The notes beneath the pieces were generated by a model that was not told the DNA's origin, made no database searches, and was given only the letters and a program-made list of their open reading frames with translations. Shown here one piece after another: positions 1-13,837 of a stretch of DNA of 14,407 bases. This stretch comes from a virus (lineage: Duplodnaviria; Heunggongvirae; Uroviricota; Caudoviricetes): IMG/VR virus record IMGVR_UViG_2778261641_000006, positions 1-14,407 of that record. One strand, 5' to 3'. Every line of letters begins with the position of its first letter. Position 1 is the stretch's first letter. Position numbers and translations under genes: made by a program.

Positions 1-101
1 ACAGTCGCCTAAACATAATCTGTCGCGAGTGCCGGAAGAGCGAAGTTATGCAGCGCATATTGTCGTTTTATCAGGGGAATTTTCAGGAGGTGGTGCTGTG
101 A
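1..101 (+). CDS. Possible 3' end of an upstream gene running off the left edge (partial)
   Basis: Frame 3 is open from the window start to TGA at 99-101 and contains a CxxC motif (ICRECRK). The stop abuts GTG at 102. Frame 2 is also open from position 2 to a stop at 182-184, so the assignment is ambiguous. Confidence 0.2.
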   Translation, partial: SRLNIICRECRKSEVMQRILSFYQGNFQEVVL

Positions 102-158
102 GTGAAATTAGCTATCAGGCTTCAATTGCCGCTGGCATTCGCATCAAAGGAGAGGAGC

Positions 159-515
159 ATGGAAATAAAACCAGAAGATGAGTTAAGTAATATTGTTTTA
201 TTTCCGGTAAAAGAGGATGACCCACGTAATCAGGTTAATTTTCTTTATGAGCCATCGGAAAGACCATACTGCCATCACGCTTCTGTCCGGGTTGACGAAA
301 AAGAGCGTCAGGTCCGCTGTAAAAACTGCGGTGCAGTTGTGGAGCCGTTTGACTGGATGCTCTCAGTGGCGAAAAGAGAAACCAGACTGGCAGATGATGT
401 AAGGCTATTGCGCCAGGAGGAACAGGAAAGGCGGAAAAATATAGAAAAGTTAATTCAGATTGAGCGTAACGCGAAAGCGCGGATACGCAGAGCGACAAAA
501 TCCAGAACTGAATAA
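159..515 (+). CDS. Hypothetical phage protein with a Cys/His cluster (possible zinc ribbon) and a basic, coiled-coil-like C-terminus
   Basis: ORF-track frame 102..515. ATG at 159 is preceded by AAGGAGAGGAG 6-9 nt upstream; GTG at 102 is an alternative start. Motif CHH-x16-CxxC, followed by a K/R/E-rich tail. I recognise no homolog. Confidence 0.5.
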   Translation: MEIKPEDELSNIVLFPVKEDDPRNQVNFLYEPSERPYCHHASVRVDEKERQVRCKNCGAVVEPFDWMLSVAKRETRLADDVRLLRQEEQERRKNIEKLIQIERNAKARIRRATKSRTE

Positions 516-585
516 TTAAATTTAGTAGTGTTAAAAATTTAATCCTTAACCGGAGGGATTTCTGCACCCTCAGAACATCAGGAGG

Positions 586-601
586 CCGCCCGAAAGGGCG
601 G
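586..601 (+). promoter_or_regulatory. Stable hairpin (CCGCCC-GAAA-GGGCGG) between the SD-like AGGAGG (580-585) and the start codon of the next gene
   Basis: Perfect 6-bp GC stem with a GNRA tetraloop, seen directly. No U-tract follows, so it is not a classical terminator. If folded, the SD-to-ATG(609) distance drops from 23 nt to about 7 nt. Confidence 0.35.
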
Positions 602-608
602 TAATGAA

Positions 609-791
609 ATGCGAAAGTTCAAAATAATTATTGAAACGGGAATAGCTGGTGGAGATTTTGAGGATGTATTCGAAGTGGACGATGACGCAACACCTGATGA
701 AATTCATGATGAAGCAAAAGAAATTTTCTTTAACTACTGCAATTACTCATATCACGCAATAAAAGACGAAGAGGAAGAACAAAATGGCTGA
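609..791 (+). CDS. Small, highly acidic hypothetical protein (60 aa)
   Basis: ORF track. About 18 D/E versus 5 K/R in 60 residues. The stop overlaps the start of the next gene by 8 nt. Confidence 0.5.
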   Translation: MRKFKIIIETGIAGGDFEDVFEVDDDATPDEIHDEAKEIFFNYCNYSYHAIKDEEEEQNG

Positions 792-960
792 TTTTGGTTC
801 AACTAAATACAACGTCAGTTTTGAAGAATGGCATGAACTGTTAATGGACTATGCAGAGTTACGTGGTGGAAGTGCTGCTGATGCTGAAGCCTGGCGTGAT
901 GACTACGAAGCAGGAAAAACACCTGTCGAAGCATATTGTGATGAGTGGGGCGATGAATGA
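784..960 (+). CDS. Small acidic hypothetical protein (58 aa; below the ORF-track length cutoff)
   Basis: Translated by hand: ATG 784 to TGA 958-960, MADFGSTKYNVSFEEWHELLMDYAELRGGSAADAEAWRDDYEAGKTPVEAYCDEWGDE. GAGGAAG lies 7-8 nt upstream. The start overlaps the previous stop, and the stop overlaps the next ATG (ATGA at 957-960). Confidence 0.4.
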   Translation: MADFGSTKYNVSFEEWHELLMDYAELRGGSAADAEAWRDDYEAGKTPVEAYCDEWGDE

Positions 961-1472
961 GCGAGATTAATTATCAGGAAGGGCATGAAACGGTAGGGCA
1001 GGCAAAACCAGTTGCATGGCGATATCGCTATGTGAAAAAAAGCGTTACGGACTTTCAGGAGAAGATGTGGGTTGGTGACTGGAAATATGTACCGACAAAA
1101 GAGGATTGCAACGACAGGCCGAGCTATGAGATTCAGGCCTTATTCACTGCCCCGCCAGTCCCGGTGACATCAGAAGGACTGGTTAAAGCCGTGCGCTTTT
1201 ATGAACAGGTAAAGCGTGAAAATCCGCCAGCCGAAACAGGATCATGGAAAGATGCTGTTGATTGGGTACTCAAAGAGGCCTGCTGTGCTGCCATTCTGGG
1301 TAAAGCTGACAATCCACTAGCATCCAGTAATCAGGTTAGCGAATTAACAATGTGGGTTAAACGACTGGTCAGTCAACTGAAAAAAGCTCAGCCGGACTGC
1401 AAATTACCGGAGAAGGCGATGGATTACCTGAAACGAAATGGACTGATAAGCGTGGAGGATGTTTTAAGATGA
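957..1472 (+). CDS. Hypothetical phage protein (171 aa)
   Basis: ORF track; coupled to the flanking genes through ATGA overlaps at both ends. No motif I recognise. Confidence 0.55.
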   Translation: MSEINYQEGHETVGQAKPVAWRYRYVKKSVTDFQEKMWVGDWKYVPTKEDCNDRPSYEIQALFTAPPVPVTSEGLVKAVRFYEQVKRENPPAETGSWKDAVDWVLKEACCAAILGKADNPLASSNQVSELTMWVKRLVSQLKKAQPDCKLPEKAMDYLKRNGLISVEDVLR

Positions 1473-1552
1473 CCTGGTCTGAAGCATTCACAACGGTAGG
1501 AATCGCACTGGCGGTGGCGCTGGTGGTGTATTCGATTTGCCGCTGGGGATAA
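1469..1552 (+). CDS. Putative 27-aa hydrophobic peptide (MTWSEAFTTVGIALAVALVVYSICRWG)
   Basis: Hand-translated. ATG 1469 overlaps the TGA of the previous gene (ATGA). Single predicted transmembrane segment. Very short, so it could be spurious. Confidence 0.25.
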   Translation: MTWSEAFTTVGIALAVALVVYSICRWG

Positions 1553-1558
1553 AAACGG

Positions 1559-1586
1559 TTTGCGGGAAAAGGAGAGTTAAGTAGAA
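1559..1586 (+). promoter_or_regulatory. Candidate sigma70 promoter for the hok mRNA (TTGCGG -16 nt- TAGAAT)
   Basis: Hexamers read directly. A start near 1593 and the terminator-like hairpin at 1990-2007 would give a transcript of about 415 nt, which fits known hok mRNAs of roughly 400 nt. Confidence 0.3.
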
Positions 1587-1763
1587 TTGCAGCGGGTGCT
1601 TGAGGCTATCTGTCTCAGGCATGAACACCAAAAGGCAGATAGAGAAAAGCCCCAGTTAACATTACGCGTCCGGCAAGACGCTTAACATTAATCTGAGGCT
1701 CAATCTATGAACGGCAAATCTAGGTTAGCCTCTTACGTGCCGAAAGGCAAGGAGAAGCAGGCT

Positions 1764-1919
1764 ATGAAGCAGCAAAAGGCGATGTTAGTCGCCCTGATCG
1801 TCATCTGTATTACCGTCATTGTGACGGCACTGGTAACGAGGAAAGACCTCTGCGAGGTACGAATCCGAACCGGCCAGACGGAGGTCGCTGTCTTCACAGC
1901 TTACGAACCTGAGGAGTAA
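1764..1919 (+). CDS. hokD: Hok/Gef-family type I toxin (small membrane toxin, 51 aa)
   Basis: MKQQKAMLVALIVICITVIVTALVTRKDLCEVRIRTGQTEVAVFTAYEPEE is near-identical to my recollection of E. coli HokD (RelF) and close to HokC (Gef). GGAG lies 8 nt upstream of ATG 1764. The in-frame upstream ATG at 1707 gives the 70-aa ORF in the track, possibly a mok-like leader reading frame. Confidence 0.85.
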   Translation: MKQQKAMLVALIVICITVIVTALVTRKDLCEVRIRTGQTEVAVFTAYEPEE

Positions 1920-1926
1920 GAGACCT

Positions 1927-1948
1927 GGCGGGGGAGAAATCCCTCGCC
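1927..1948 (+). promoter_or_regulatory. 8-bp GC-rich hairpin just 3' of hok (GGCGGGGG-AGAAAT-CCCTCGCC), possibly an mRNA folding or stability element
   Basis: Inverted repeat read directly, with one G-U pair. No U-tract follows. Hok mRNAs are known to carry 3' fold-back elements, but the assignment here is inference. Confidence 0.3.
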
Positions 1949-1989
1949 ACCTCTGATGTGTCAGGCATCCTCAACGCACCCGCACTTAA

Positions 1990-2007
1990 CCCGCTTCGGC
2001 GTTTTTT
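1990..2007 (+). terminator. Weak rho-independent terminator (CGC-UUCG-GCG then T6) at the end of the hok transcript
   Basis: 3-bp stem with a UUCG tetraloop followed by TTTTTT. It shares the 13-mer ACCCGCTTCGGCG with the stronger terminator at 2655-2679. Confidence 0.4.
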
Positions 2008-2062
2008 CCGTTGATTAACTCTAGTTATTAGAGAACCGAACTTTTATTGATGGGGCAGGGAG

Positions 2063-2455
2063 ATGAAGAAACTTGTTTTAGTCGCAGGTGTAATGATTGC
2101 AACAGTAATGTTGGGAGGGTGTGCAGCAAAGGTCGATCCAGCGTTGAAAGCAGAAGCAATGAAGCCACTAACATGTAATGATGAAAAGCAATGTGACTTT
2201 TATTGGAAACGAGCGCAATTCTGGTTGGCTAATAATTCCTCATGGAAAATTCAAACGGCGACAGACACGCTAATTTCCACTTATAATCCCTCTCCAAATA
2301 GTCCATTCCTCGCTTATCAAGTGAGTAAAATGCCAAATGAAGATGGATCCTCAAGAATTTTCATCAAGCCTTTTTGCGATAATATGTTTGGCTGTCAACC
2401 AAACCCCTATCAGGCAGTTGTTTCCTTTAAAAACTTCGTTAAAACAGGGCAGTAG
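2063..2455 (+). CDS. Putative lipoprotein (moron), 130 aa
   Basis: N-terminal signal peptide with lipobox LGGC (Cys20); four more Cys in the mature part; AGGGAG as RBS. Not Bor by sequence comparison from memory. Flanked by terminator-like hairpins on both sides. Confidence 0.7.
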   Translation: MKKLVLVAGVMIATVMLGGCAAKVDPALKAEAMKPLTCNDEKQCDFYWKRAQFWLANNSSWKIQTATDTLISTYNPSPNSPFLAYQVSKMPNEDGSSRIFIKPFCDNMFGCQPNPYQAVVSFKNFVKTGQ

Positions 2456-2654
2456 TGTATAGCTTGGACGATAAATTATTAGTGAAAACGCCGTAAACCC
2501 TCACCCAATGTGGACTAAGTCTATCAAACATGACTGTGATGATTAGTCCGTAGTTGTTGCCTATGAAATCTGGATTGAGTCAGGGTTTAATCCAATAATT
2601 ATTCTATCGTTCCTTTACAAGTCCGGTATATTACTTTCAGTTTGTTTTAGCATA

Positions 2655-2679
2655 CCCGCTTCGGCGGGTTTTGTTTTTT
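2655..2679 (+). terminator. Rho-independent terminator (CCCGC-TTCG-GCGGG then TTTTGTTTTTT)
   Basis: 5-bp GC stem, UUCG tetraloop and a long T-tract, read directly. Confidence 0.6.
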
Positions 2680-2751
2680 CCTGGCATTCTGGTTTACAAT
2701 TCGCACGCCAGCCTGAACAACTGGCACCTGCTGCGCCAGCAGAGACAACCG

Positions 2752-3030
2752 ATGGCGCACGATACCAAATTACACAATTCTGATGATTCTGCCGTCTTTG
2801 CCAGCAGGCACGGGCGGCGTTCCCGCACTTTCAAATCTGACTGGTTCCAGCATGACCCATGTACTGAAGAACAGGCCGAATGGCTAATTCATAACTATCG
2901 CAGACGCGGATACGAGATTAAGAAAGCCCTCAGCCTCGATTATCGTCACTGGATAATCTATGTCAGGCTCCCTTATTCCGAACGCCCACCGCGCCCATCC
3001 CGCACATACCAGCAACGGATCTGGAGGTAA
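2752..3030 (+). CDS. Small basic hypothetical protein (92 aa), in the position Rem occupies in Qin
   Basis: The ORF-track entry begins at a TTG (2671) inside the terminator T-tract; the first ATG is at 2752. Stop TAA at 3028-3030 sits just before the GTG start of the next gene. Weak RBS. Confidence 0.4.
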   Translation: MAHDTKLHNSDDSAVFASRHGRRSRTFKSDWFQHDPCTEEQAEWLIHNYRRRGYEIKKALSLDYRHWIIYVRLPYSERPPRPSRTYQQRIWR

Positions 3031-3031
3031 C

Positions 3032-4090
3032 GTGCGGATATTACTTCGACCTGTTCTGGTACCGGAACTCGGGCTGGTGGTCCTTAGGCCGGGCCGTGAA
3101 TCCATGCAAGTATTTCATAACCCTCGAGTGCTGGTGGAGCCTGAACCGAAAAGCATGCGCGGTCTGCCGTCCGGAGTCGTCCCTGCCGTTCGCCAGCCGC
3201 TGGCGGAGGATAAATCATTACTGCCATTTTTCAGCGATGAGCGGGTGATTCGTGCTGCTGGCGGCGCTGGGGCACTGTCTGACTGGCTGTTGCGTCATGT
3301 CAAATCCTGCCAGTGGCCTCATGGTGACTATCATCACAGTGAAATCGTCATACATCGTTACGGTACCGGCGCGATGGTGTTGTGCTGGCACTGCGACAAC
3401 CAGTTGCGTGACCAGACATCCGAATCACTCGGGCAACTTGCTCATCAAAACCTGTCAGCATGGATGATTGACGTCATACGCCATGCAATGAATGGCACGC
3501 AGGAGCGGGAATTGTCGCTGGCTGAATTATCCTGGTGGGCGGTCTGCAATCAGGTGGCGGACGCGCTTCCGGAGGCAGTATTACGTCGTTCTCTGGGGTT
3601 ACGTGCGGAAAAAATCCGCTCCTTGTACCGCGAAAGCGACATCGTACCGGGAGAGCAGACCGCCACCAGCATACTGAAGCAGCGCACAAAAAATCTTGCG
3701 CCGTTGCCTCATGCCCACCAGCAACAGAACCCACCACAGGAAAAGACGGTGGTATGCATCACCGTTGATCCGGAGTCTCCGGCTCAGTATCTCCAGCGCC
3801 AGAAACCACAACGGGAAGAGATGCCTGTATACACGCGCTGGGTAAAAACGCAGAAATGCATGACGTGCGGTAATCAGGCAGATGATCCGCATCACATCAT
3901 TGGTCATGGACTGGGAGGGATGGGAACAAAGGCTGATGATTTGTTTGTTATTCCGCTGTGCCGTAAATGTCATAACGAACTGCACGCCGGGGTAAAAGAT
4001 TTTGAAGAAAAACACGGCAGCCAGCTGTTGTTGCTGATTCGTTTTTTAATGCACGCGAGAAATTCGGGTGTCCTGAAGTGGAAAGCATGA
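3032..4090 (+). CDS. DUF968/YdfU-like prophage protein with a C-terminal HNH-like Cys/His motif
   Basis: GTG at 3032 is in frame with the track ORF 2960..4090 and has GGAGGT 4 nt upstream. The resulting 352-aa product matches the size I recall for YdfU. C-terminal CMTCGN...HH...CRKCHNELH. Lies directly upstream of rusA, as in DLP12/Qin-type prophages. Confidence 0.65.
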   Translation: MRILLRPVLVPELGLVVLRPGRESMQVFHNPRVLVEPEPKSMRGLPSGVVPAVRQPLAEDKSLLPFFSDERVIRAAGGAGALSDWLLRHVKSCQWPHGDYHHSEIVIHRYGTGAMVLCWHCDNQLRDQTSESLGQLAHQNLSAWMIDVIRHAMNGTQERELSLAELSWWAVCNQVADALPEAVLRRSLGLRAEKIRSLYRESDIVPGEQTATSILKQRTKNLAPLPHAHQQQNPPQEKTVVCITVDPESPAQYLQRQKPQREEMPVYTRWVKTQKCMTCGNQADDPHHIIGHGLGGMGTKADDLFVIPLCRKCHNELHAGVKDFEEKHGSQLLLLIRFLMHARNSGVLKWKA

Positions 4091-4456
4091 ATGACTGAAC
4101 GCATAGAATTTGTTTTGCCTTACCCGCCGACGGTGAATACCTACTGGCGACGTCGTGGCAGCACATATTTTGTATCAAAAGCCGGCGAGCGTTATCGCCG
4201 TGATGTGGCGCTCATTGTTCGCCAGCAGCGGCTGAAATTAAACCTGCCCGGAAGGCTGGCGATAAAGGTGATTGCAGAGCCGCCGGATAAGCGCCGCCGG
4301 GACCTGGACAATATCCTGAAAGCACCACTGGATGCACTGACACATGCGGGGTTGCTTATCGACGACGAGCAGTTTGATGAAATCAATATTGTGCGCGGTC
4401 AGGTCGTTCCTGGTGGTCGGTTGGGGATAAAAATCACAGGGCTGGAGTGCGCATGA
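4091..4456 (+). CDS. rusA: RusA-family Holliday junction resolvase
   Basis: 121 aa; LPYPPTVNTYWR and RRRDLDNILKAPLDALTHAGLLIDDEQ align with E. coli RusA from memory. The start abuts the previous stop (TGAATG). Confidence 0.9.
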   Translation: MTERIEFVLPYPPTVNTYWRRRGSTYFVSKAGERYRRDVALIVRQQRLKLNLPGRLAIKVIAEPPDKRRRDLDNILKAPLDALTHAGLLIDDEQFDEINIVRGQVVPGGRLGIKITGLECA

Positions 4457-5142
4457 ATAACCAGTATTTACAGTTTGTGCGTGAACAGCTCATTATCGCC
4501 ACCGCCGATTTGAGTGGAGCAACAAAAGGTCAGCTTGAAGCCTGGCAGGAGAATGCCATGTTTGATACCGGGCGTTACAGGCGTAAAAAAATCCGGTACC
4601 GCGATGAAGTGACCGGAAAAATGATCACGCTGGATAATCCACCAATCCCGGGGAAACAATCGCTGGCAAAGAAGACGTCAATTCCTCTGGTAAGTCAGGT
4701 TGAGTTTTCGACATCATCATGGCGACGGGCGGTTCTGTCTCTTGAAGAACACCATAAAGCCTGGTTGCTGTGGTGTTACAGCGGCAGCATTTGCTGGGAA
4801 CACCAGATTGCGATAACACAGTGGGCGTGGAATGAATTTAACGCGCAATCTGGTACCAGAAAAATTGCGGAGAAAACACGGGAGCGCCTGAAAAAATTAA
4901 TCTGGCTGGCGGCACAGGATGTGAAGAGTGAGCTAGCTGGGCGTGAAACTTATGAATATCAGGAACTGGCATTACTGGCGGGAGTGACAACTAAAAACTG
5001 GTCCAAAACATTTACTGGTCACTGGGTTGCAATGAAACACATTTTCCACCGGCTGGATAGTGAGGCTTTATTGTTTGTGATGAGAACACGTTCAGAACAA
5101 AAGGCGGCATTTTCAAAGCAAAATGTTGCAAAAGTAGATTGA
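4453..5142 (+). CDS. Putative late-gene antiterminator Q (Qin QuuQ/Q82-like family)
   Basis: ATG 4453 overlaps the rusA stop (ATGA) and has GGAG 6 nt upstream; the track start at 4447 is a GTG. The function call rests on synteny (after rusA, before promoter/terminator and the lysis cassette) and size, not on recognised motifs. Confidence 0.55.
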   Translation: MNNQYLQFVREQLIIATADLSGATKGQLEAWQENAMFDTGRYRRKKIRYRDEVTGKMITLDNPPIPGKQSLAKKTSIPLVSQVEFSTSSWRRAVLSLEEHHKAWLLWCYSGSICWEHQIAITQWAWNEFNAQSGTRKIAEKTRERLKKLIWLAAQDVKSELAGRETYEYQELALLAGVTTKNWSKTFTGHWVAMKHIFHRLDSEALLFVMRTRSEQKAAFSKQNVAKVD

Positions 5143-5154
5143 AAGGCATATATT
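5126..5154 (+). promoter_or_regulatory. Candidate late promoter PR' (TTGCAA -17 nt- TATATT) overlapping the 3' end of the Q-like gene
   Basis: Hexamers and spacing read directly. A terminator follows about 50 nt downstream, the arrangement expected for a Q-modified PR'/tR' unit. Confidence 0.35.
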
Positions 5155-5207
5155 TCATGCAAATCTGATATTTTGCCGATTTTGTACGTGATGGCAAAAG
5201 CAAACAA

Positions 5208-5231
5208 AACCCGCCCACAAGCGGGTTTTTT
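5208..5231 (+). terminator. Rho-independent terminator (AACCCGC-CCACAA-GCGGGTT then T-tract); candidate tR'
   Basis: 7-bp stem with a T-tract, read directly. Confidence 0.6.
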
Positions 5232-5298
5232 GTGCCACTTATCTCGGATAGACATGGTGAATGCGCTAGTGGAGGAGATAAGGGTGATTTTTGAATGC

Positions 5299-5327
5299 TT
5301 GCAACATTGATTTCGTAACGTTATTAT
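5299..5327 (+). promoter_or_regulatory. Candidate sigma70 promoter for the tRNA cluster (TTGCAA -17 nt- TATTAT)
   Basis: Read directly. The predicted start at about 5334-5336 lies immediately 5' of the first tRNA (5337). Confidence 0.45.
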
Positions 5328-5336
5328 CCTGCGCCC

Positions 5337-5412
5337 GGCCCTTTAGCTCAGTGGTGAGAGCGAGCGACTCATAATCGCCAGGTCGCTGGTTCAAATCCAG
5401 CAAGGGCCACCA
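5337..5412 (+). tRNA. tRNA with anticodon CAT (Ile2/lysidine-type or Met; resembles E. coli ileX and prophage ileZ)
   Basis: Cloverleaf folded by hand: acceptor GGCCCTT/AAGGGCC, D-arm GCTC..GAGC, anticodon loop CTCATAA, T-loop TTCAAAT, 3' ACCA. Confidence 0.8.
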
Positions 5413-5413
5413 G

Positions 5414-5490
5414 CCGCCACTAGCTCATCAGGAAAGAGCGTCAACCCTTTAAGTTGAGTGTGCGAGGTTCGAGTCCCCGGTGGCGGTCCA
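5414..5490 (+). tRNA. Non-canonical tRNA-like gene, UUU-type (Lys-like) anticodon in a loop reading CCTTTAA (C at position 33)
   Basis: Acceptor CCGCCAC/GTGGCGG, discriminator T, CCA encoded; 9-nt D-loop; anticodon stem TCAAC/GTTGA; T-loop TTCGAGT with an A-C mismatch in the T-stem. Could be functional, a pseudo-tRNA, or mis-folded by hand. Confidence 0.45.
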
Positions 5491-5492
5491 GT

Positions 5493-5568
<76 letters not shown>

Positions 5569-5571
5569 TAT

Positions 5572-5646
<75 letters not shown>

Positions 5647-5652
5647 GTTAGA

Positions 5653-5698
5653 GTCTTTCAGTCTGCGATGATGGGAAATCCCGGAGTGACTGAAAGAC
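5653..5698. repeat. Perfect 11-bp inverted repeat (GTCTTTCAGTC / GACTGAAAGAC) with an inner GGG-AAAT-CCC mini-hairpin, just 3' of tRNA-Gly
   Basis: Read directly; 24-nt spacer. Possible RNA processing or structural element. Confidence 0.5.
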
Positions 5699-5705
5699 GT
5701 TTAAG

Positions 5706-5778
5706 TTATGAATGATCGCCTTTTTTTGCAAAATTGCTGTGCAGAAATACTAACCTTCGAGCAGGCGATCATTCATAA
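5706..5778. repeat. Perfect 15-bp inverted repeat (TTATGAATGATCGCC / GGCGATCATTCATAA) around a 43-nt spacer that holds a promoter-like TTGCAA -16 nt- TACTAA
   Basis: Read directly. The left arm is followed by T7. The embedded -35/-10-like hexamers are at 5726-5731 and 5748-5753. Confidence 0.5.
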
Positions 5779-5854
5779 GCACTCTGCTTTTATTCCGATT
5801 AACTGTGGGTGGTTTGTTGGATAGAGTGCTTTCCTTTCTGTATATATCGTTTCG

Positions 5855-5878
5855 CCCGCTTTTGCGGGTTTTTCTTTT
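5855..5878 (+). terminator. Rho-independent terminator (CCCGC-TTTT-GCGGG then TTTTTCTTTT) upstream of the lysis cassette
   Basis: Read directly; lies about 60 nt upstream of the holin start. Confidence 0.6.
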
Positions 5879-5938
5879 CAAATCCCTTTCATTTCTCAGT
5901 GTAAAACTACGCCATCCGTTATTTGCGGAGGTGAGGCT

Positions 5939-6154
5939 ATGAAATCCATGGACAAAATTTCAACGGGCATTGCCTACGGCACCTCCGCAGGCAGTGCTGG
6001 CTACTGGTTTTTACAGTGGCTTGATCAGGTCAGTCCTTCACAGTGGGCTGCGATTGGTGTACTGGGGAGTCTGGTTCTGGGCTTCCTGACTTATCTGACA
6101 AATCTGTACTTCAAAATCAGAGAAGACAAGCGTAAGGCTGCACGGGGAGAGTAA
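5939..6154 (+). CDS. S: Class II pinholin, phage 21 S21-type, with dual-start motif (antiholin from M1, holin from M4)
   Basis: [71 protein letters not shown] matches my recollection of S21 (S2171/S2168) and Qin EssQ. RBS GGAGGTGAGG. Confidence 0.85.
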
Positions 6155-6158
6155 TTCA

Positions 6159-6473
6159 ATGACTCAAAACTATGAACTGATTGTGAAAGGGATCCGCAAT
6201 TTTGAGAATAAAGTTACGGTAACTTTAGCGTTACGGGACAAAAAACGCTTTGACGGTGAAATTTTTGACCTGGACATCTCGCTGGACCGTGTTGAAGGTG
6301 CCGCGCTGGAGTTTTATGAAGCAGCAGCCAGAAGGAGCATCAGACAGGTCTTCCTGGATGTTGCTGCCGGGTTATGTGAAGGGGACGAGCTGTTGCCAGA
6401 AACGCGCCCCTGTTCAGAGGCGCGGTATACCATAAAAATTAACAGTTCTGATAACTCGATTACAGGTTGTTAG
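6159..6473 (+). CDS. Hypothetical protein between holin and endolysin (YdfR/DUF1327-like by position and size)
   Basis: 104-aa ORF in the same slot as ydfR (103 aa) between essQ and rrrQ in Qin. The family assignment is from synteny and memory, not motifs. Confidence 0.55.
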   Translation: MTQNYELIVKGIRNFENKVTVTLALRDKKRFDGEIFDLDISLDRVEGAALEFYEAAARRSIRQVFLDVAAGLCEGDELLPETRPCSEARYTIKINSSDNSITGC

Positions 6474-6528
6474 CTTTTTGCAGTTGGCTTTCCAGTATCT
6501 TTCATTGGTAGCATCCTGATAAATATCC

Positions 6529-7062
6529 ATGAGCGCAAAAATCAAATACGGCCTGTCAGCTGCTGTTCTGGCGCTGATTGCTGCAGGCGCGTCTGCTCCT
6601 CAAATACTTGACCAGTTTCTGGATGAAAAAGAGGGTAACCACACTACGGCATACCGCGATGGTTCCGGCATATGGACCATCTGCCGCGGTGCAACGATGG
6701 TGGATGGTAAGCCAGTCGTACCAGGAATGAAACTGTCGAAGGAAAAATGCGCTCAGGTTAATGCCATTGAGCGTGATAAGGCGCTGGCATGGGTGGAGCG
6801 CAATATAAAAGTTCCACTGACCGAGCCACAGAAAGCCGGTATCGCATCATTCTGTCCCTATAACATTGGCCCCGGTAAGTGTTTCCCGTCGACGTTTTAT
6901 AAGCGGCTGAATGCCGGTGATCGTAAGGGCGCATGCGAGGCGATTCGCTGGTGGATAAAAGATGGTGGGCGCGATTGCCGCATACGTTCAAATAACTGCT
7001 ATGGACAGGTTATTCGTCGTGACCAGGAAAGCGCATTAGCCTGTTGGGGGATAGATCAGTGA
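6529..7062 (+). CDS. R: SAR endolysin (T4-lysozyme-like muramidase, GH24; RrrQ/R21-type)
   Basis: 177 aa. N-terminal signal-anchor-release segment ([20 protein letters not shown]), then an E...D...T catalytic arrangement (EKEGN / YRDGSG / WTICRG). Pairs functionally with a pinholin. Confidence 0.85.
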
Positions 7063-7523
7063 GCAGAGTCGCCGCGATTATTTATGCTCTGGTTATTTGC
7101 ATCATCGTCTGCCTGTTGTGGGCGGTCAATCATTACCGTGATAACGCCATCGCCTACAAAGAACAGCGTGATAAAAAAGTCAGTGAGCTGAAGCAGGCGA
7201 TCGCCACCATCGCTGACATGCAGCAGCGTCAGCGTGATGTTGCTGCGCTCGATGCAAAGTACTCGAGAGAATTAGCCAATGCGAAAGCTGAAAATGAAAC
7301 TCTGCGCGCTGATGTTGCCGCTGGTCGTCGTCGGTTGCACATCAAAGCAGTCTGTCAGTCAGTGCGTGAAGCCACCACCGCCTCCGGCGTGGATAATGCA
7401 ACCAGCCCCCGACTGGCAGACACCGCTGAACGGGATTATTTCACCCTCAGAGAGCGGCTGATGACGATGCAGATGCAACTGGAAGGGGCACAGGAGTATA
7501 TCCGCACTCAGTGCATTAAGTAG
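7059..7523 (+). CDS. Rz: Rz (i-spanin)
   Basis: From GTG 7059 the product [31 protein letters not shown]... is very close to lambda Rz from memory. GGGGGA lies about 9 nt upstream. The track start at 7044 is a TTG. Confidence 0.85.
7279..7461 (+). CDS. Rz1: Rz1 (o-spanin lipoprotein), embedded in the +1 frame of Rz
   Basis: [42 protein letters not shown]... has the lipobox VVGC and proline-rich region, near-identical to lambda Rz1 from memory. Confidence 0.85.
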
Positions 7524-7565
7524 CCTTTTTATCGTGGTAAACATTTCGCAGGGTATGAGGTATTT

Positions 7566-7916
7566 ATGCCATCACGAATCCCACGCGCCTGCCGTAAGCG
7601 TGGATGTGCAGGTACAACCACAGACAGTTCTGGTTACTGCGATAAACATCGTGGCGAAGGATGGGTACAGCATCAACGCGGACTGAGCCGCCACCAGCGT
7701 GGCTATGGCTCGAAATGGGATGCCATACGTGCGCGCATACTGAAGCGTGATAATCATCTGTGTCAGAACTGCCTGCGCAATGGGAGAGCCGTTGAAGCTA
7801 GAACTGTGGACCACATCATTCCGAAAGCTCATGGTGGCACGGATGCAGACAGTAACCTGCAGAGTCTGTGCTGGCCCTGTCATAAAGCAAAAACAGCGCG
7901 CGAACGCATCAATTGA
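7566..7916 (+). CDS. HNH endonuclease, terminase-associated (HK97 gp74-like)
   Basis: N-terminal Cys cluster and C-terminal HNH motif (DHIIPKAHGG...NLQSLCWPCHKAK). Sits directly upstream of the small terminase, as in HK97-like phages. Confidence 0.85.
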   Translation: MPSRIPRACRKRGCAGTTTDSSGYCDKHRGEGWVQHQRGLSRHQRGYGSKWDAIRARILKRDNHLCQNCLRNGRAVEARTVDHIIPKAHGGTDADSNLQSLCWPCHKAKTARERIN

Positions 7917-8063
7917 TAACAGTTCCCATCTGTAGGGGAGGGGCGGGTCAAATCTCTGCAACCCTGGCTGCTCAGTACCGCCGCCTGACCCTTCCTCACA
8001 TCGCCGCAGGTTCGAAAACTTTTTTTTGGAATGTGATTGAATGATTGATAGGTAAAACCGATT
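7917..8063. other. Candidate cos/packaging-signal region between the HNH gene and terS
   Basis: Position only: in HK97 the cohesive-end site lies between the HNH gene and terS. Contains an imperfect inverted repeat (GGGCGGGTCA ... TGACCCTTCC) and a T8 run. The exact cos site is not identified. Confidence 0.25.
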
Positions 8064-8546
8064 ATGTCAGGACCCCCGAAAACCCCGCCACGCCTGCATT
8101 TGATACGAGGCAACCCCTCAAAGCGCCCCGTTAAAGACCCCAAAAAAACCGCTAAAAAGGATGAAAAAGGTCTCCCTAAAATTCCGCAACATTTAGGGGC
8201 ACAGGGGAAGTACTGGTTCAGGCGAATGGCGGAAGAGCTGAATGCGGAAGGGATCATTTCTCAGCTTGATGCGCGTGCACTCGAGTTGCTGGTGGAAGCC
8301 TACACCGAATATCGGCATCACTGCGAAACACTGGATGTTGAGGGGTATACCTACCGCACGGAAACGCAGAGCGGTGATGTACTGATTAAGGCGCACCCCG
8401 CGGCGGCAATGAAAGCGGATGCCTGGAAGCGGATCCGGGCAATGCTTGCAGAGTTTGGTATGTCACCGGCAAGCCGGGCTAAAGTAAATATCGCCGGACC
8501 GGATGATGTTGATCCGCTGGCGGAGCTTTTAAAAGCGAGAGACTGA
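8064..8546 (+). CDS. Terminase small subunit (P27/HK97-type)
   Basis: 160 aa with a basic N-terminus; position and size fit TerS. Stop overlaps the terL start (TGATG). Confidence 0.8.
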   Translation: MSGPPKTPPRLHLIRGNPSKRPVKDPKKTAKKDEKGLPKIPQHLGAQGKYWFRRMAEELNAEGIISQLDARALELLVEAYTEYRHHCETLDVEGYTYRTETQSGDVLIKAHPAAAMKADAWKRIRAMLAEFGMSPASRAKVNIAGPDDVDPLAELLKARD

Positions 8547-10303
8547 TGGCAAAAGTGGCTGACGGGATCCGCTACGCCGAACGTGTTGTTGCAGGAGAAA
8601 TTGTTGCTGGCGAATTTGTCCGCCTGGCCTGCCAGCGTTTTCTTGATGATCTGAAGTTCGGCGAAGAGCGGGGGATTTATTTCAGTGAACCCCGTGCGCA
8701 GCACATCCTGAATTTCTACAAATTTGTACCTCATGTAAAAGGGGCGCTAGCAGGCCAGCCCATTGACTTGATGGACTGGCATGTATTTATCCTCATTAAT
8801 ATTTTTGGTTTTGTCATTCCGCTGGTCAATGAAGAGACCGGGGAAGTTGTCATGCGCAGCGATGGCAGCGGACGTCCGGTGATGGTGCGCCGGTTCCGGA
8901 CGGCGTACAACGAAGTCGCCCGTAAAAACGCAAAATCAACTCTGTCATCGGGTATCGGCCTGTATATGACGGGGGCAGATGGTGAAGGCGGAGCTGAGGT
9001 GTATTCAGCCGCAACCACGCGTGACCAGGCCAGAATCGTGTTTGAAGACGCCAAAAATATGGTAAGAAAAGCCCGGTCGACACTCGGGCGGTTGTTTGAT
9101 TTCAACAAGCTGGCGATTTACCAGGAGCAGAGCGCATCAAAATTTGAACCGCTTTCTTCGGATGCAAACAACCTGGATGGTCTGAACATCCACTGCGCCA
9201 TTATTGATGAGCTGCATGCACATAAAACACGTGACGTGTGGGACGTTCTGGAAACGGCAACCGGTGCCCGTCTGCAGTCCCTTTTATTTGGTATCACCAC
9301 GGCAGGGTTTAACAAGGAAGGGATTTGTTACGAGCAGCGTGATTACGCCATCAAGGTATTGCGTGGCTATAACAGCGACGTGGAGGGCGCGGTAAAAGAC
9401 GACTCCTACTTTGCGATTATTTACACCCTCGATGAGGGAGATGATCCGTTTGATGAAACGGTCTGGCAGAAAGCGAATCCCGGCCTGGGCATCTGTAAAC
9501 GCTGGGATGATCTGCGTCGCCTGGCGAAAAAAGCGAAAGAACAGGTCTCTGCGCGGGTGAATTTTTTTACCAAACACATGAATGTGTGGGTAACAGCAGA
9601 GTCTGCCTGGATGGACATGATTAAGTGGGAGAAGTGCGAATACATTGCCCCACGACATGAGCTGAAAACGTATCCCATGTGGGTCGGCGTTGACCTTGCT
9701 CATAAGATTGATATCTGTGCGGCGGCAAAACTCTGGCGAACGGATAACGGGCATGTTCATGCCGATTTTAAATTCTGGCTTCCGGAAGGACGGCTGGAAC
9801 GATGCTCGCGGCAGCAGGCAGAACTTTACCGGAAGTGGGCGGAGATGGATAAGCTGATTCTGACGGATGGTGATGTTATCGATCATGCTCAGATAAAAAG
9901 TGACTTACTGGAATGGATTGGTGGTGAAAACCTCAGGGAACTGGGATTTGACCCGTGGAGCGCGATGCAGTTCAGCCTGGCACTGGCTGAAGAAGGGATA
10001 CCGCTGGTGGAGGTTCCGCAGACGGTTCGCAATCTGTCAGAGGCCATGAAGGAAACGGAATCACTGGTCTATGCCGGGCGTTTCCATCACAGCAATCATC
10101 CGGTCATGAACTGGATGATGTCTAACGTTACGGTAAAACCGGACAAAAACGACAATATCTTCCCGAATAAATCCACGCTGGAAGCCAAAATCGACGGCCC
10201 TGTTGCGATGTTTACAGCAATGAGCCGGATGCTGGTCAATGGTGGTGAACCGGAGCTGGATCTGTCTGAACATCTGGTCAGCGTGGGCATCCGCTCGCTT
10301 TAA
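8546..10303 (+). CDS. Terminase large subunit (HK97 Terminase_1 family)
   Basis: 585 aa. An N-terminal ATPase region with a Walker A-like GADGEGG segment and a Walker B-like IIDE segment, followed by a C-terminal nuclease region; typical length and position. Confidence 0.9.
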
Positions 10304-10314
10304 CCGAGGTCATT

Positions 10315-10497
10315 ATGTTTCTGATAATTCTCGCGCCACTGGTGGGCGTGCTGGGTGCGCTTTTGCTGGCGTATGGTGCCTGGCTGATTTATCCCCCGGC
10401 GGGTTTTGTTGTTGCCGGGGTGCTGTGCCTGTTCTGGTCGTGGCTGGTGGCGCGATATCTCGACCGTACACAGCCGTCTGTCGGCGGAGGTAAATAG
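10315..10497 (+). CDS. Small predicted 2-TM membrane protein (60 aa) inserted between terL and portal
   Basis: ORF track. GAGG 5 nt upstream of ATG. Two hydrophobic segments. Its stop overlaps the portal GTG. Canonical HK97-type modules have no gene here. Confidence 0.45.
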
Positions 10498-11738
10498 TGT
10501 TCTTTTCGGGATTATTTCAACGAAAAAGTGACGCACCGGTGACCACGCCAGCAGAGCTGGCGGATGCTATCGGGTTGTCCTACGACACCTATACCGGAAA
10601 GCAGATCAGCAGCCAGCGGGCCATGCGACTGACGGCGGTTTTTTCCTGTGTCAGGGTGCTGGCGGAGTCGGTCGGGATGTTGCCCTGCAACCTGTATCAC
10701 CTGAACGGCAGCCTGAAGCAGAGAGCCACTGGCGAACGTCTGCATAAGCTGATCTCCACGCATCCCAATGGCTATATGACGCCGCAGGAGTTCTGGGAGC
10801 TGGTGGTCACCTGTCTGTGCCTGCGGGGAAACTTTTACGCCTACAAAGTGAAAGCATTTGGCGAAGTGGCTGAACTGCTGCCCGTCGATCCCGGCTGTGT
10901 GGTACCGAAGCTTAACAGTAGCTGGGAGCCGGTCTATCAGGTCACATTCCCGGATGGCTCCACGGATGTACTGAGCCAGGAGGATATCTGGCATGTGCGC
11001 ACGCTGACGCTGGACGGACTGGTGGGGCTGAATCCCATCGCCTATGCCCGCGAGGCAATATCGCTGGCGGCAGCGACCGAAGAGCACGGGGCCAGACTGT
11101 TCAGCAATGGCGCGGTGACGTCGGGTGTGTTGCGTACAGAGCAGACGCTGTCAGATCAGGCTTATGAGCGCCTGAAGAAAGATTTTGAGGAGCGTCACAC
11201 CGGGCTTGGCAATGCTCACCGCCCGATGATCCTTGAGATGGGGCTGGACTGGAAGTCGATGGCGCTGAACGCCGAGGACAGCCAGTTCCTGGAAACCCGC
11301 AAGTTTCAGCTTGAAGAAATCTGTCGTCTGTTCCGGGTGCCGTTGCACATGGTGCAGAACACCGATCGCGCCACCTTCAACAATATCGAAGAGCTGGGGC
11401 TGGGATTTATCAACTATTCACTGGTGCCGTATCTGACCCGCATCGAACAGCGGATCAACACCGGACTGGTACGAAAAAGTAAGCAGGGCGTTTATTACGC
11501 CAAATTTAATGCCGGGGCGTTACTGCGCGGGGATATGAAGTCCCGTTTTGAAGCCTACGCCACCGGGATCAACTGGGGAATTTACTCTCCCAATGACTGC
11601 CGCGACCTGGAAGATATGAATCCGCGTCCCGGTGGTGATGTCTATCTCACACCGATGAACATGACCACGAAACCCTCCGATGGCAGTAAAGCCGGTAAGC
11701 AGAAGGATAACGCCAATGCAGACGAAACAACGTCTTGA
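10497..11738 (+). CDS. Portal protein (HK97 family)
   Basis: 413 aa; position after terL and composition fit portal. GTG start at 10497 with GGCGGAGG upstream. Confidence 0.85.
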   Translation: MFFSGLFQRKSDAPVTTPAELADAIGLSYDTYTGKQISSQRAMRLTAVFSCVRVLAESVGMLPCNLYHLNGSLKQRATGERLHKLISTHPNGYMTPQEFWELVVTCLCLRGNFYAYKVKAFGEVAELLPVDPGCVVPKLNSSWEPVYQVTFPDGSTDVLSQEDIWHVRTLTLDGLVGLNPIAYAREAISLAAATEEHGARLFSNGAVTSGVLRTEQTLSDQAYERLKKDFEERHTGLGNAHRPMILEMGLDWKSMALNAEDSQFLETRKFQLEEICRLFRVPLHMVQNTDRATFNNIEELGLGFINYSLVPYLTRIEQRINTGLVRKSKQGVYYAKFNAGALLRGDMKSRFEAYATGINWGIYSPNDCRDLEDMNPRPGGDVYLTPMNMTTKPSDGSKAGKQKDNANADETTS

Positions 11739-12366
11739 TGTACCGCTGAGTCTGAAATCTGTCAGTGACTCCGGTGAGTTTGAAGGGTATGGCTCCGTCT
11801 TTGGTGTAAAGGACAGCCACGATGATGTGGTGATGTCCGGGGCATTTGCTGCTTCCCTGCGGGCGTGGAGTGACAGAAAAGCGTTACCTGCGCTGCTCTG
11901 GCAGCACCGCATGGATGAACCCATCGGTGTTTACACCGAAATGAAGGAAGACGATGTCGGGCTTTACGTCAGGGGACGGTTGCTTATTGATGATGATCCC
12001 CTCGCAAAACGCGCACATGCACACATGAAGGCCGGTTCGTTAACCGGCCTTTCTATTGGGTACGTCCTGAAGGACTGGGAATACGACCGGAGCAAAGAAG
12101 CCTTTCTGCTGAAAGAAATCGACCTCTGGGAAGTCAGCCTGGTGACGTTCCCGTCTAACGACGAGGCGCGGATCAGCGACGTCAAGAACGCACTGGCCCG
12201 CGGGGAAATCCCCGAACAGAAAAAAATCGAAAGAGTCCTGCGTGATGTCGGACTCTCCCGTACCCAGGCCAAAGCATTCATGGCCGGGGGCTATGGCGCA
12301 CTGTCCCTGCGCGACGCTGAGGATGTGGGCTCTGCACTGAATGCACTGAAAAATCTGAACTTCTAA
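11716..12366 (+). CDS. Prohead maturation protease (HK97 gp4-like, S78 family)
   Basis: ATG 11716 has AAGGA 8 nt upstream; the in-frame ATG at 11680 is an alternative. Size and position between portal and capsid fit the HK97 protease. Confidence 0.85.
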   Translation: MQTKQRLDVPLSLKSVSDSGEFEGYGSVFGVKDSHDDVVMSGAFAASLRAWSDRKALPALLWQHRMDEPIGVYTEMKEDDVGLYVRGRLLIDDDPLAKRAHAHMKAGSLTGLSIGYVLKDWEYDRSKEAFLLKEIDLWEVSLVTFPSNDEARISDVKNALARGEIPEQKKIERVLRDVGLSRTQAKAFMAGGYGALSLRDAEDVGSALNALKNLNF

Positions 12367-12380
12367 TCAGGAGAAATACG

Positions 12381-13586
12381 ATGGCGGTTGATATTAAAGA
12401 TGTCGAACAGGTCGCGCAGGAGCTGCAGCAGAAGTTTGACGACTTCAAAGCAAAGAACGACAAGCGCGTGGATGCGATTGAGCAGGAAAAAGGCAAACTT
12501 GCCGGGCAGGTGGAAACCCTGAACGGGAAACTCAGCGAGCTGGAAAACCTCAAAAGCGATCTTGAAAAAGAGCTGCTTGAGCTGAAACGTCCGGCAGGTG
12601 GTGCGCAAAATAAACTGGCCACCGAGCATAAAGAAGCGTTTGTGGGCTTCCTGCGTAAAGGCCGTGAAGATGGTCTGCGCGATCTGGAGCGCAAGGCATT
12701 ACAGGTGGGCACCGATGAAGACGGCGGCTATGCCGTGCCGGAAGCACTGGATCGCAACATTCTCACCCTGCTGAAAGATGAAGTGGTGATGCGCCAGGAA
12801 GCCACGGTGATCAGCGTTGGTGGTTCCGACTACAAAAAACTGGTGAATCTGGGCGGCACGGCTTCCGGATGGGTTGGCGAGACTGACGCGCGCTCCCAGA
12901 CTGCCACCTCAAAACTGGGCCTGATTGAACCTTTCATGGGGGAAATCTACGGTAACCCGCAGGCCACCCAGAAAATGCTGGATGATGCCTTTTTCAACGT
13001 GGAAGCATGGATCAACAGCGAGCTGGCAACCGAATTTGCCGAACAGGAAGAAATTGCCTTTACCACCGGCGATGGTACCAAGAAGCCGAAAGGGTTCCTG
13101 GCGTATGAGTCCACGGATGAAACAGACAAGGTCCGGGCGTTCGGCAAACTTCAGCATATTGTATCCGGCGAAGCGACGGCGGTGACCGCAGATGCCATTA
13201 TCAAACTGATTTACACGCTGCGTAAGGCACACCGCACTGGCGCGAAGTTCATGATGAACAACAACAGTCTGTTTGCCATCCGTCTGCTGAAAGACAGTGA
13301 GGGTAACTATCTGTGGCGTCCGGGGCTGGAGCTGGGGCAGCCGTCCTCTCTGGCGGGTTACGCTATCGCTGAAAACGAACAGATGCCGGATATTGCCGCT
13401 GATGCGAAAGCCATTGCATTTGGTAACTTCAAACGGGGTTACACCATCGTTGACCGTATCGGTACCCGCATTCTGCGTGACCCGTACACCAATAAACCGT
13501 TTGTCGGTTTTTATACCACCAAGCGCACCGGCGGCATGCTGGTCGATTCGCAGGCCATCAAACTGCTGAAGATTGCAGCGGCGTAA
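12381..13586 (+). CDS. Major capsid protein, HK97 fold, with N-terminal coiled-coil delta (scaffolding) domain
   Basis: 401 aa. The first 100 or so residues are a K/E/L-rich coiled coil, followed by a conserved capsid body. RBS AGGAGA. Confidence 0.9.
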   Translation: MAVDIKDVEQVAQELQQKFDDFKAKNDKRVDAIEQEKGKLAGQVETLNGKLSELENLKSDLEKELLELKRPAGGAQNKLATEHKEAFVGFLRKGREDGLRDLERKALQVGTDEDGGYAVPEALDRNILTLLKDEVVMRQEATVISVGGSDYKKLVNLGGTASGWVGETDARSQTATSKLGLIEPFMGEIYGNPQATQKMLDDAFFNVEAWINSELATEFAEQEEIAFTTGDGTKKPKGFLAYESTDETDKVRAFGKLQHIVSGEATAVTADAIIKLIYTLRKAHRTGAKFMMNNNSLFAIRLLKDSEGNYLWRPGLELGQPSSLAGYAIAENEQMPDIAADAKAIAFGNFKRGYTIVDRIGTRILRDPYTNKPFVGFYTTKRTGGMLVDSQAIKLLKIAAA

Positions 13587-13593
13587 TCATTCA

Positions 13594-13622: not shown

Positions 13623-13637
13623 ACAGGTGAAAGAATC

Positions 13638-13826: not shown

Positions 13827-13837
13827 AGGTTGCCCAA

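Follow-up and report, generated by a model that had tools for sequence, protein, structure and literature searches.

A structured trailer RNA with a kink-turn signature behind the tRNA array of Escherichia coli prophages

Introduction

Spacers of tRNA transcripts can give small RNA (sRNA) sponges; Lalaouna and colleagues are said to have described in 2015 such a sponge, 3′ETS-leuZ, which is cut from the 3′ external transcribed spacer (3′ETS) of the glyW-cysT-leuZ tRNA operon of E. coli. Small stable RNAs called species 1 and 2 (rnaC and rnaD) are known from the tRNA gene cluster of phage T4. Prophage late leaders are also home to the regulatory RNAs StxS, STnc100/PasD, AgvB, AsxR and PasA/C. 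3′ETS-leuZ appears under the name 3′ESTleuZ in tables of PMC8550237. tRNA genes can be active in the same leaders: in an Stx phage, mapping placed a primary start of phage tRNA transcription between tR′ and the tRNA genes (PMC7547250), and the Salmonella prophage BTP1 expresses its tRNAs, which occupy the interval from Q to the lysis genes, at a high level in lysogeny (10.1101/787010). Here we analyze a structured element in the late leader of a phage 21-like prophage, located in the 292 nucleotides (nt) that separate a tRNA-Gly gene from the holin gene in 14,407 nt of Caudoviricetes DNA (IMG/VR record IMGVR_UViG_2778261641_000006, positions 1 to 14,407; hereafter the window).

By analogy, this element would work most like a tRNA 3′ETS-derived RNA such as 3′ETS-leuZ. 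It stands directly 3′ of the last tRNA of an operon with a predicted promoter of its own and ends at the operon terminator, as 3′ETS-leuZ does, and its RNA would likewise be a by-product of tRNA processing. The two differ in that the RNA described here is about four times longer, is encoded by a phage, and has three conserved hairpins, one of them with a kink-turn signature; there is no sequence similarity between them.

Results and Discussion

Three hairpins are maintained in the plus-strand RNA

The interval between tRNA-Gly and the holin gene had originally been predicted, from the letters of the window, to be a structured non-coding block with two perfect inverted repeats, a promoter-like element in the loop of the second, and a terminator. 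Non-coding and structured it proved to be, although a third hairpin, the kink-turn signature of the first hairpin, and the tRNA operon with its own promoter had been overlooked. The first repeat, of 11 bp, is perfect as described and encloses a short GGG/CCC helix (coordinates are collected in Table 1). The second is also perfect, but measures 16 bp rather than the 15 bp first reported, with its arms 41 nt apart; it is the longest perfect short-range inverted repeat of the 14.4-kb window. A third perfect inverted repeat, of 9 nt, directly abuts it. Repeats of this length had been judged unlikely to arise by chance, and this judgment holds: among 1000 dinucleotide-preserving shuffles of positions 5647-5880, none reached 16 bp and three reached 11 bp. 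Similarly, the predicted RNA fold of this interval has an energy of -81.7 kcal/mol, compared with -55.8 +/- 4.2 for shuffled sequences (z = -6.2), and none of 200 shuffles folded as well. The statement that the block holds no open reading frame (ORF) was essentially right, in that only ORFs of at most 45 amino acids (aa) overlap it and the one that has been annotated, of 38 aa, is not conserved.

The fold resolves into three hairpins, SL1, SL2 and SL3. SL1 contains helices of 11, 2 and 3 bp, SL2 has helices of 16 and 8 bp with a 3-nt bulge between them, and SL3 consists of an outer stem and an inner helix. The apical region of SL2 (5722-5756), which includes the promoter-like TTGCAA...TACTAA, is conserved in sequence, as is the G/U-rich 3′ side of SL3 (5807-5822, GGGTGGTTTGTTGGAT).

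Conservation and covariation across related prophages had been proposed as a check on the repeats, and all three hairpins turned out to be kept by compensatory changes. Relatives were sampled via exact-match baits and fall into two main sequence types, A (the E. coli form, found in the window) and B (the HK639-like form). RNAalifold, applied to 26 representatives aligned over SL2 and SL3, returned helices that agree with the single-sequence fold. Across the 41 pairs of this alignment, 97.0% of 1062 cells are standard pairs, a share that falls to 33-49% after sliding of the 3′ partners by 1-3 columns. Changes on both sides keep the pairing in 10 pairs and 51 cells, counts that are inflated by relatedness and whose cells are not independent events; the covariation score was reached by none of 500 shuffles. 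Compensatory changes affect four pairs of the SL2 stem and five of the SL3 outer stem, and the latter occurs in the versions GCACTCTG/TAGAGTGC, GCATCTCG/TGAGGTGC, GCACTCCG/TGGAGTGC and GCACCTTG/TAAGGTAT.

The wobble pairs reveal the strand on which this structure is selected. There are 133 G.U cells as opposed to 12 A.C cells, so that 97.0% of cells pair on the + strand and 85.6% on the - strand. This excess of G.U over A.C shows that the structure is that of a + strand RNA, and it also counts against an element acting in duplex DNA. A minus-strand RNA and a DNA cruciform were ruled out by the same asymmetry and by the lack of minus-strand terminators. These data show that selection maintains three hairpins in the trailer as a + strand RNA. 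The apical region of SL2 and the G/U-rich side of SL3 are better conserved than the stems around them, and the spacers between hairpins diverge freely whereas the loops and the kink-turn core are fixed. As judged with a second bait, placed in SL3, the SL2 loop is strongly but not absolutely conserved, and its common variants differ by 1-2 bases. In a few divergent members (loci L275 and L255) the apical part of SL2 has been replaced outright and the long stem kept.

Hairpin 1 carries the sequence signature of a standard kink-turn

In a standard kink-turn (k-turn), a bulge of 3 nt leads into tandem G.A and A.G pairs, and the nucleotides G1b, A2b, G2n and A1n are conserved (PMC5689011). In SL1 a 3-nt bulge, GAU in the window and GAA in relatives, lies next to a Watson-Crick C helix, and directly 3′ of it a tandem G.A / A.G is present that is invariant in 22 of 22 distinct SL1-type hairpins (alignment A3). 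The C helix comprises C5666:G5686 and G5665.U5687, followed by one bulged U and then by the 11-bp stem. In alignment A3, 96.3% of cells are paired as opposed to 38-47% after sliding, and 8 of the 13 basal-stem pairs show changes on both sides; in contrast to this variable stem, C5666:G5686, G5667, A5668, G5670, A5671, the GGG/CCC helix, G5684 and A5685 are invariant. At the level of sequence, then, hairpin 1 carries the invariant signature of a standard k-turn, with the kinked geometry itself a prediction.

Folding of a k-turn in Mg2+ without protein is favored by C:G at -1b:-1n, U:G or A:G at 3b:3n, and C:G at 4b:4n (PMC5689011). SL1 has an invariant C:G at the first of these positions, U:G, A:G or C:U at the second, and G:C, the unfavorable orientation, at the third. 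Its strands, C-GAU-GA-U-GGG and CCC-G-GA-G, closely parallel those of Kt-7 (C-GAA-GA-A-CC and GG-G-GA-G; PMC5689011), from which it differs in having G:C rather than C:G at 4b:4n. Unlike the k-turns of rRNA, riboswitches and snoRNAs, that of SL1 is set in a small hairpin behind a tRNA. E. coli is known to have no more than a handful of k-turn RNAs and is not known to encode an L7Ae-family protein.

Trailers of phage contigs were also sampled independently of the block, by scanning with the 3′ end of the tRNA-Gly gene. More than ten of the sampled trailers open with a hairpin that has the SL1 core on a different basal stem and then continue into other modules. In the first 230 nt after tRNA-Gly, loci L305, L312, L319, L323, L341, L345 and L347 hold a different conserved module, GTGAAGTGACAGCCGGGAAAGACCGGCACC, followed by a terminator, and in some of them this module stands behind an SL1-like k-turn hairpin. 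Phage tRNA arrays may in general have structured trailers. We also considered mimicry of 23S rRNA: GCGAUGAAGG, the bulged strand of some SL1 variants (L345, L341, L306), is identical to a 10-mer at 23S nt 46-55 (L369). This match is treated as chance because no matching partner strand is evident.

The element travels with a tRNA array that has its own predicted promoter and terminator

Upstream of the element lie four tRNA genes, preceded by a predicted sigma-70 promoter. A G+C-rich segment, CCTGCGCCC, fills the space between the -10 hexamer and the 5′ end of tRNA-Met. The motif TTGCA(A/G)-17-TAT(T/C)AT, the G+C-rich segment and the distance to tRNA-Met are all kept in dozens of arrays whose flanks differ. 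The CCTGCGCCC segment resembles the discriminator found in promoters of stable RNAs under stringent control.

In 75 distinct loci the element is nearly always found behind a Met-X-Thr-Gly array. Its distance from the last tRNA is 61-63 nt where SL1 is present and 4-6 nt where SL2 comes first, so that whichever hairpin leads, the first helix begins 1-6 nt past the tRNA 3′ end. The next gene downstream, on the other hand, is one of several unrelated holins or small genes. The unit thus travels with the tRNA array and not with a particular Q or holin, and a promoter upstream combined with unrelated holins downstream points to the block being the 3′ trailer and terminator of an autonomous tRNA operon.

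The strong terminator of the original prediction was confirmed as GCCCGC-TTTT-GCGGG followed by TTTTTCTTTT. Its hairpin (5854-5869) has six pairs, five of them G-C, and a 4-nt loop, as predicted for an intrinsic terminator. Of 108 distinct relatives, 71 have a + strand terminator after SL3 when a strict rule is applied, and in roughly 20 further A-type copies its stem is weakened. These terminators comprise at least 28 different hairpin sequences, at distances of 39-151 nt; since they vary so in sequence, it is the function of terminating here that is conserved and not the sequence. The 3′ arm (5864-5878) is polymorphic among 78 A-type loci, reading GCGGG+T5 in 22 (the form of the window), GCGGGC+T4 in 22, GCGG+T6 in 27 and GCG+T7 in 6, and the differences amount to G-to-T changes at the border of stem and T run. 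A riboswitch-like alternative pairing between SL3 and the terminator was considered and dropped, as the terminators of relatives are non-homologous and stand at variable distance.

Two observations concern the tRNAs themselves. The second tRNA of the array is hypervariable (L008, L011, L018, L021, L087 and others), being Lys(UUU), Arg(UCU), Phe(AAA or GAA) or forms that ARAGORN could not type, and one form, by its anticodon UUA, would decode the stop codon UAA; the tRNA-Lys of the window itself scores only 44 bits in Rfam. In HK639 (L001, 2440-2496) only the 3′ half of tRNA-Gly is left, identical to the gene of the window over about 47 nt between flanks of about 75% identity, and ARAGORN calls no tRNA there.

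The leaders of relatives can hold further RNAs. After tR′, that of HK639 contains a tRNA, the truncated tRNA-Gly, the element with its terminator, STnc100 with a terminator, another terminated segment and then the lysis genes; there are four + strand terminators in this leader (L001, 2300-3140), and the STnc100 copy (2754-2959) comes right after the element. Similarly, the leader of the Salmonella prophage Fels-1 holds three STnc100 copies between Q and the lysis genes (L303, 1273-3028). Since each STnc100 copy in HK639 and Fels-1 comes with a terminator, terminator-ended RNA cassettes recur in this leader.

The element forms an undescribed RNA family

Homologues were found in 536 of 5426 complete E. 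coli genomes (about 10%), always on the chromosome, usually as a single copy (median one per genome) and all in prophage late regions; across these 536 genomes no annotated feature lies beneath the block. Four E. coli phage records carry it at about 98% identity, and HK639 carries it at 75%. Among IMG/VR contigs, a 19-mer bait from the SL2 loop retrieved at least 119 loci, and a 17-mer bait from the G/U-rich side of SL3 retrieved 74, of which about 55 are real. Species-representative genomes were scanned with a 16-mer, by which most of 120 loci were chance hits; a second-motif filter left seven loci in five species, Shigella flexneri, Enterobacter hormaechei, Phytobacter ursingii and Yokenella regensburgei among them. 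Because this bait is too short, the range of taxa seen is a minimum. In Fels-1 only SL2 is retained.

At the gathering threshold, Rfam 15 found only tRNA and sok in the window, and no family (STnc100, AgvB, AsxR, IsrK, Y RNA-like, T-box or any other) matched the block; including five related loci added only STnc100, which lay outside the element. Relaxing the threshold to E <= 10 over 5560-5960 gave matches at chance level only. Furthermore, a literature search with the conserved motifs as sequence strings found no paper in the library searched. The block is thus an undescribed RNA family, common yet unannotated in E. coli.

Proposed role of the trailer and rival explanations

With moderate confidence we favor a model in which a self-contained phage tRNA operon has the block as its 3′ trailer and terminator, the trailer gives rise to a stable RNA, and the terminator shields the lysis genes. 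In this model the operon would run from its promoter (5299-5327) through tRNA Met-Lys-Thr-Gly and the trailer (5647-5853) to the terminator (5854-5878), all inside the Q-dependent late leader. In lysogens, we predict, the tRNA promoter fires without Q and the terminator halts transcripts ahead of the holin gene, while Q-modified RNA polymerase from pR′ (candidate site 5126-5154) would read through. RNase P and RNase E would cut out the tRNAs, leaving an RNA with a stable helix at its 5′ end, 1-5 nt past the CCA, and the terminator hairpin at its 3′ end; because of these two structures it should resist both 5′-end-dependent RNase E and 3′ exonucleases. The trailer RNA may then accumulate as a discrete species of about 230 nt, or as sub-fragments, and act via its k-turn and conserved loops on a protein or RNA partner. 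It is the combination of a k-turn with conserved apical sequences that would indicate a specific partner.

Several observations weigh against this model. In 33 of 78 A-type copies the terminator stem is cut to 3-4 G-C pairs, which is odd if insulation is critical, and the tRNA upstream of the HK639 copy has no promoter of its own. Some relatives lack the terminator, SL1, SL3 or any upstream tRNA, so that the modules can exist separately, and the phage tRNA-Gly trailers of the unbiased sample mostly carry other sequences. The invariance of the SL2 loop is partly circular because this loop was the first bait, a problem that the second bait removes in part. Since the family is shallow (75-100% identity) with two main clades, many covarying cells stem from few events, and the minimum free energy fold of the HK639 copy on its own does not reproduce SL2 and SL3 cleanly. 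Finally, the stability and ends of the trailer RNA, and any function in trans, are inferred.

Among the rivals, the main one, which we regard as possible, is a module that acts purely in cis. Its helices would be landmarks for RNase III, RNase E or both that mark off tRNA precursor from late mRNA, the helix after the CCA would cap and protect the new 5′ end of the lysis mRNA, and no separate RNA would act in trans. The constant 1-6 nt between the tRNA 3′ end and the first helix would fit such a module, as would the retention of the long SL2 helix even under a foreign apical part (L275, L255) and the combined 16-bp lower and 8-bp inner stems, which make about two helical turns. RNase III processing sites in the lambda late transcript have been reported in literature cited by PMC7547250, and some copies that have no terminator continue into the next gene. 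A protective or cleavage helix, however, needs neither an invariant k-turn core nor loops better conserved than their stems; the terminator behind most copies makes a discrete RNA without Q, and the element also occurs without an upstream tRNA. More tentatively, the trailer could be a self-folding k-turn RNA that is shipped with the phage tRNAs and titrates a particular factor of host or phage, such as a defense nuclease aimed at tRNAs, an enzyme of tRNA processing or repair, or a ribosomal or RNA-chaperone protein. Were this true, tRNA array and trailer would be one cassette for counter-defense or host takeover, and the modules seen after other phage tRNA-Gly genes would be variations on this theme.

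The remaining explanations are unlikely to differing degrees. The original prediction had included a small RNA of about 100 nt ending at the terminator, which in its explicit form would be a transcript of about 120 nt that starts from the promoter-like element and contains the 3′ arm of SL2, SL3 and the terminator. TTGCAA (5727-5732) and TACTAA (5749-5754) do lie 16 nt apart in the loop, TTGCAA...TACT(A/G)A is among the best conserved parts of the family, TGTGAAAAT just upstream in HK639-type copies resembles an extended -10 element, and the terminator follows about 100-120 nt downstream. Our promoter scan, however, required two hexamers with at least 9 of 12 matches and a -10 with A at position 2 and T at position 6, and it called no site in the SL2 loop of either the window or HK639, because TACTAA and TACTGA have no T at the last position; the -10-like hexamer varies among TACTAA, TACTGA and TGCTGA in relatives. 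Covariation of the SL2 arms moreover places both in one RNA, which counts against a transcript that starts between them, and in divergent members the whole loop is replaced while the stem is kept. We thus consider a start in the loop unlikely and favor a trailer RNA of about 230 nt, or pieces processed from it, over an RNA of about 100 nt. Slightly less credible again is that only the terminator matters and the hairpins are decaying relics, such as duplicated tRNA halves. The apical part of SL1 (CTGCGATGATGGG...CCC) does resemble the variable-loop/T-arm segment of tRNA-Gly (CTGATGATGCGGG...CCCGC), a truncated tRNA-Gly lies just upstream of the element in HK639, and modules have been gained and lost; but relics would hardly have all three helices maintained by compensatory changes, loops and k-turn core fixed between freely diverging spacers, and a place in about 10% of E. 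coli genomes and several genera. We give very little credence to an element that works as DNA, be it a set of regulator binding sites (a protein-binding site controlling read-through had been suggested), a recombination or mosaic junction, or a miniature transposable element. Its repeats are perfect, its contexts varied and its location a known insertion hotspot downstream of pR′ (PMC4104026), yet 133 G.U to 12 A.C cells are expected of RNA and not of duplex DNA, the arms are widely separated, + strand terminators come after the element, and there are no target-site duplications and no multiple dispersed copies. Just as improbable is a 38-aa peptide encoded by ORF 5708-5824, although ON470580 and ON470583 list it as a hypothetical protein and its 38 codons are open in 21 of 35 A-type and 13 of about 50 B-type sequences. 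Changes in T-run length truncate 11 of the 35 A-type copies, the B-type start codon is TTG and 17 B-type copies stop at codon 27, and the middle third is in different frames in the two types even though the stem nucleotides are conserved; there is also no Pfam match and, on inspection, no evident Shine-Dalgarno sequence.

Comparison with other RNAs of phage leaders

Like lambda 6S and StxS (PMC7547250), the block RNA belongs to the Q-to-lysis leader, runs in the direction of the late genes and ends at a terminator, and it too would be made in lysogens through antitermination control. Those RNAs start at pR′ and end at tR′, however, and share no sequence with it. That the block is itself such a pR′-tR′ short RNA was rejected, since another promoter-terminator pair (5126-5231) lies about 500 nt upstream of it and it stands behind four tRNA genes. 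STnc100 (RF02076) and PasD, prophage sRNAs next to Q (10.64898/2026.05.13.724894), are also co-directional, terminator-ended and structured RNAs of this leader; their architecture differs, the block has no Rfam match even at E <= 10, and the window contains no STnc100. In lambdoid prophages of pathogenic E. coli the same cargo slot between Q and holin, at the moron site that lies past pR′, is taken by AgvB and AsxR (PMC4104026) and PasA/PasC (PMC8550237), but these are transcribed convergently from the opposite strand, whereas the block RNA is on the late-gene strand. Rfam gave no AgvB or AsxR match in the window, or at E <= 10 on 5560-5960. Identity with PasA or PasC was likewise rejected: blastn (word size 7) against the E2348/69 loci, placed from the supplementary tables of PMC8550237, found only matches of at most 18 nt with E > 0.1, and the structure of the block is on the late-gene strand. 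Of the other Pas RNAs, PasB is in a structural operon and PasD adjoins LpxR/Q.

By analogy only, the trailer can also be set beside T4 species 1 and 2, small stable RNAs with no assigned function that lie beside phage tRNA genes and mature from the same precursors; these come from a virulent phage group. Box C/D, T-box, Y-RNA and put-like readings fit neither the sequence nor the Rfam results. When the conserved loops were compared by eye, unsystematically, with RyhB, RybB and MicA, no convincing complementarity was seen.

To the RNAs of these leaders the element adds an undescribed family, carried by about 1 in 10 E. coli genomes including lineages of extraintestinal and avian pathogenic E. 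coli (ExPEC/APEC; APEC O1, IHE3034), and its architecture, a k-turn hairpin fused to two conserved hairpins, is unusual among enterobacterial sRNAs. An autonomous tRNA operon with a conserved promoter and its own terminator would explain how lysogens can express these tRNAs and yet not lyse. Should the RNA have a partner, it would give direct access to the question of why temperate phages carry tRNA arrays.

Gene neighborhood and other features of the window

The window covers the late-regulatory and lysis region of the prophage, as judged by Pfam identification of its genes (Table 1), and the identical gene order is annotated in E. coli APEC O1 at 99% identity.

Table 1. Coordinates of the element, the tRNA operon and neighboring features in the window
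Feature	Position	Strand	Details and basis
DUF968 protein	2960-4090		Pfam
RusA	4091-4456		Pfam
Antiterminator Q	4447-5142		Pfam PF06323
Promoter-like site	5126-5154	+	TTGCAA-17-TATATT; overlaps Q end/stop codon; promoter scan
G+C-rich hairpin	5206-5231	either	CCCGC-CCACAA-GCGGG; A run on one side, T run on the other
Predicted sigma-70 promoter of tRNA operon	5299-5327	+	TTGCAA-17-TATTAT; ends 9 nt before tRNA-Met
tRNA-Met(CAU)	5337-5412	+	ARAGORN, Rfam tRNA
tRNA-Lys(UUU)	5414-5490	+	ARAGORN, Rfam tRNA
tRNA-Thr(UGU)	5493-5568	+	ARAGORN, Rfam tRNA
tRNA-Gly(UCC)	5572-5646	+	ARAGORN, Rfam tRNA
Hairpin 1 (SL1), k-turn hairpin	5648-5703	+	Basal stem 5653-5663 / 5688-5698; fold, alignment A3
SL1, predicted k-turn core			C5666:G5686; bulge GAU 5667-5669; G5670.A5685; A5671.G5684; U5672.G5683
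SL1, distal stem			GGG 5673-5675 / CCC 5680-5682; loop AAAU
Hairpin 2 (SL2)	5706-5778	+	16-bp lower stem 5706-5721 / 5763-5778; inner 8-bp hairpin 5723-5730 / 5740-5747
Hairpin 3 (SL3)	5777-5831	+	Outer stem 5777-5785 / 5823-5831; inner helix
Predicted intrinsic terminator of tRNA operon / trailer RNA	5854-5878	+	GCCCGC-TTTT-GCGGG, then TTTTTCTTTT
Phage 21-type holin, first lysis gene	5939-6154	+	Pfam PF04971; downstream neighbor, outside the RNA
DUF1327/YdfR	6159-6473		Pfam
Lysozyme	6529-7062		Pfam
Rz	7044-7523		Pfam
HNH endonuclease and small terminase			Pfam

From its position after Q, the promoter-like site at the end of that gene is a candidate for the late promoter pR′. The G+C-rich hairpin downstream is terminator-like on both strands, our terminator scan listing it on the - strand and the T run of the + strand (5226-5231) being read directly from the sequence, and its position makes it a candidate tR′. 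With the hairpin about 50-75 nt past the promoter-like site, the two would together yield an RNA of about 75 nt that corresponds in location to lambda 6S and StxS, a candidate pR′-tR′ sRNA by analogy for this phage 21-like Q. At the start of the lysis genes, a perfect 10-bp inverted repeat (5924-5933 / 5980-5989, TGCGGAGGTG / CACCTCCGCA) pairs the Shine-Dalgarno region of the holin with its codons ~14-17 and may be a translational control structure of the phage 21-type holin. At the early-late junction of the prophage, Rfam places a sok antitoxin RNA (112 bits) at 1594-1769, adjoining a hokD-type toxin ORF, and the two make a type I toxin-antitoxin pair.

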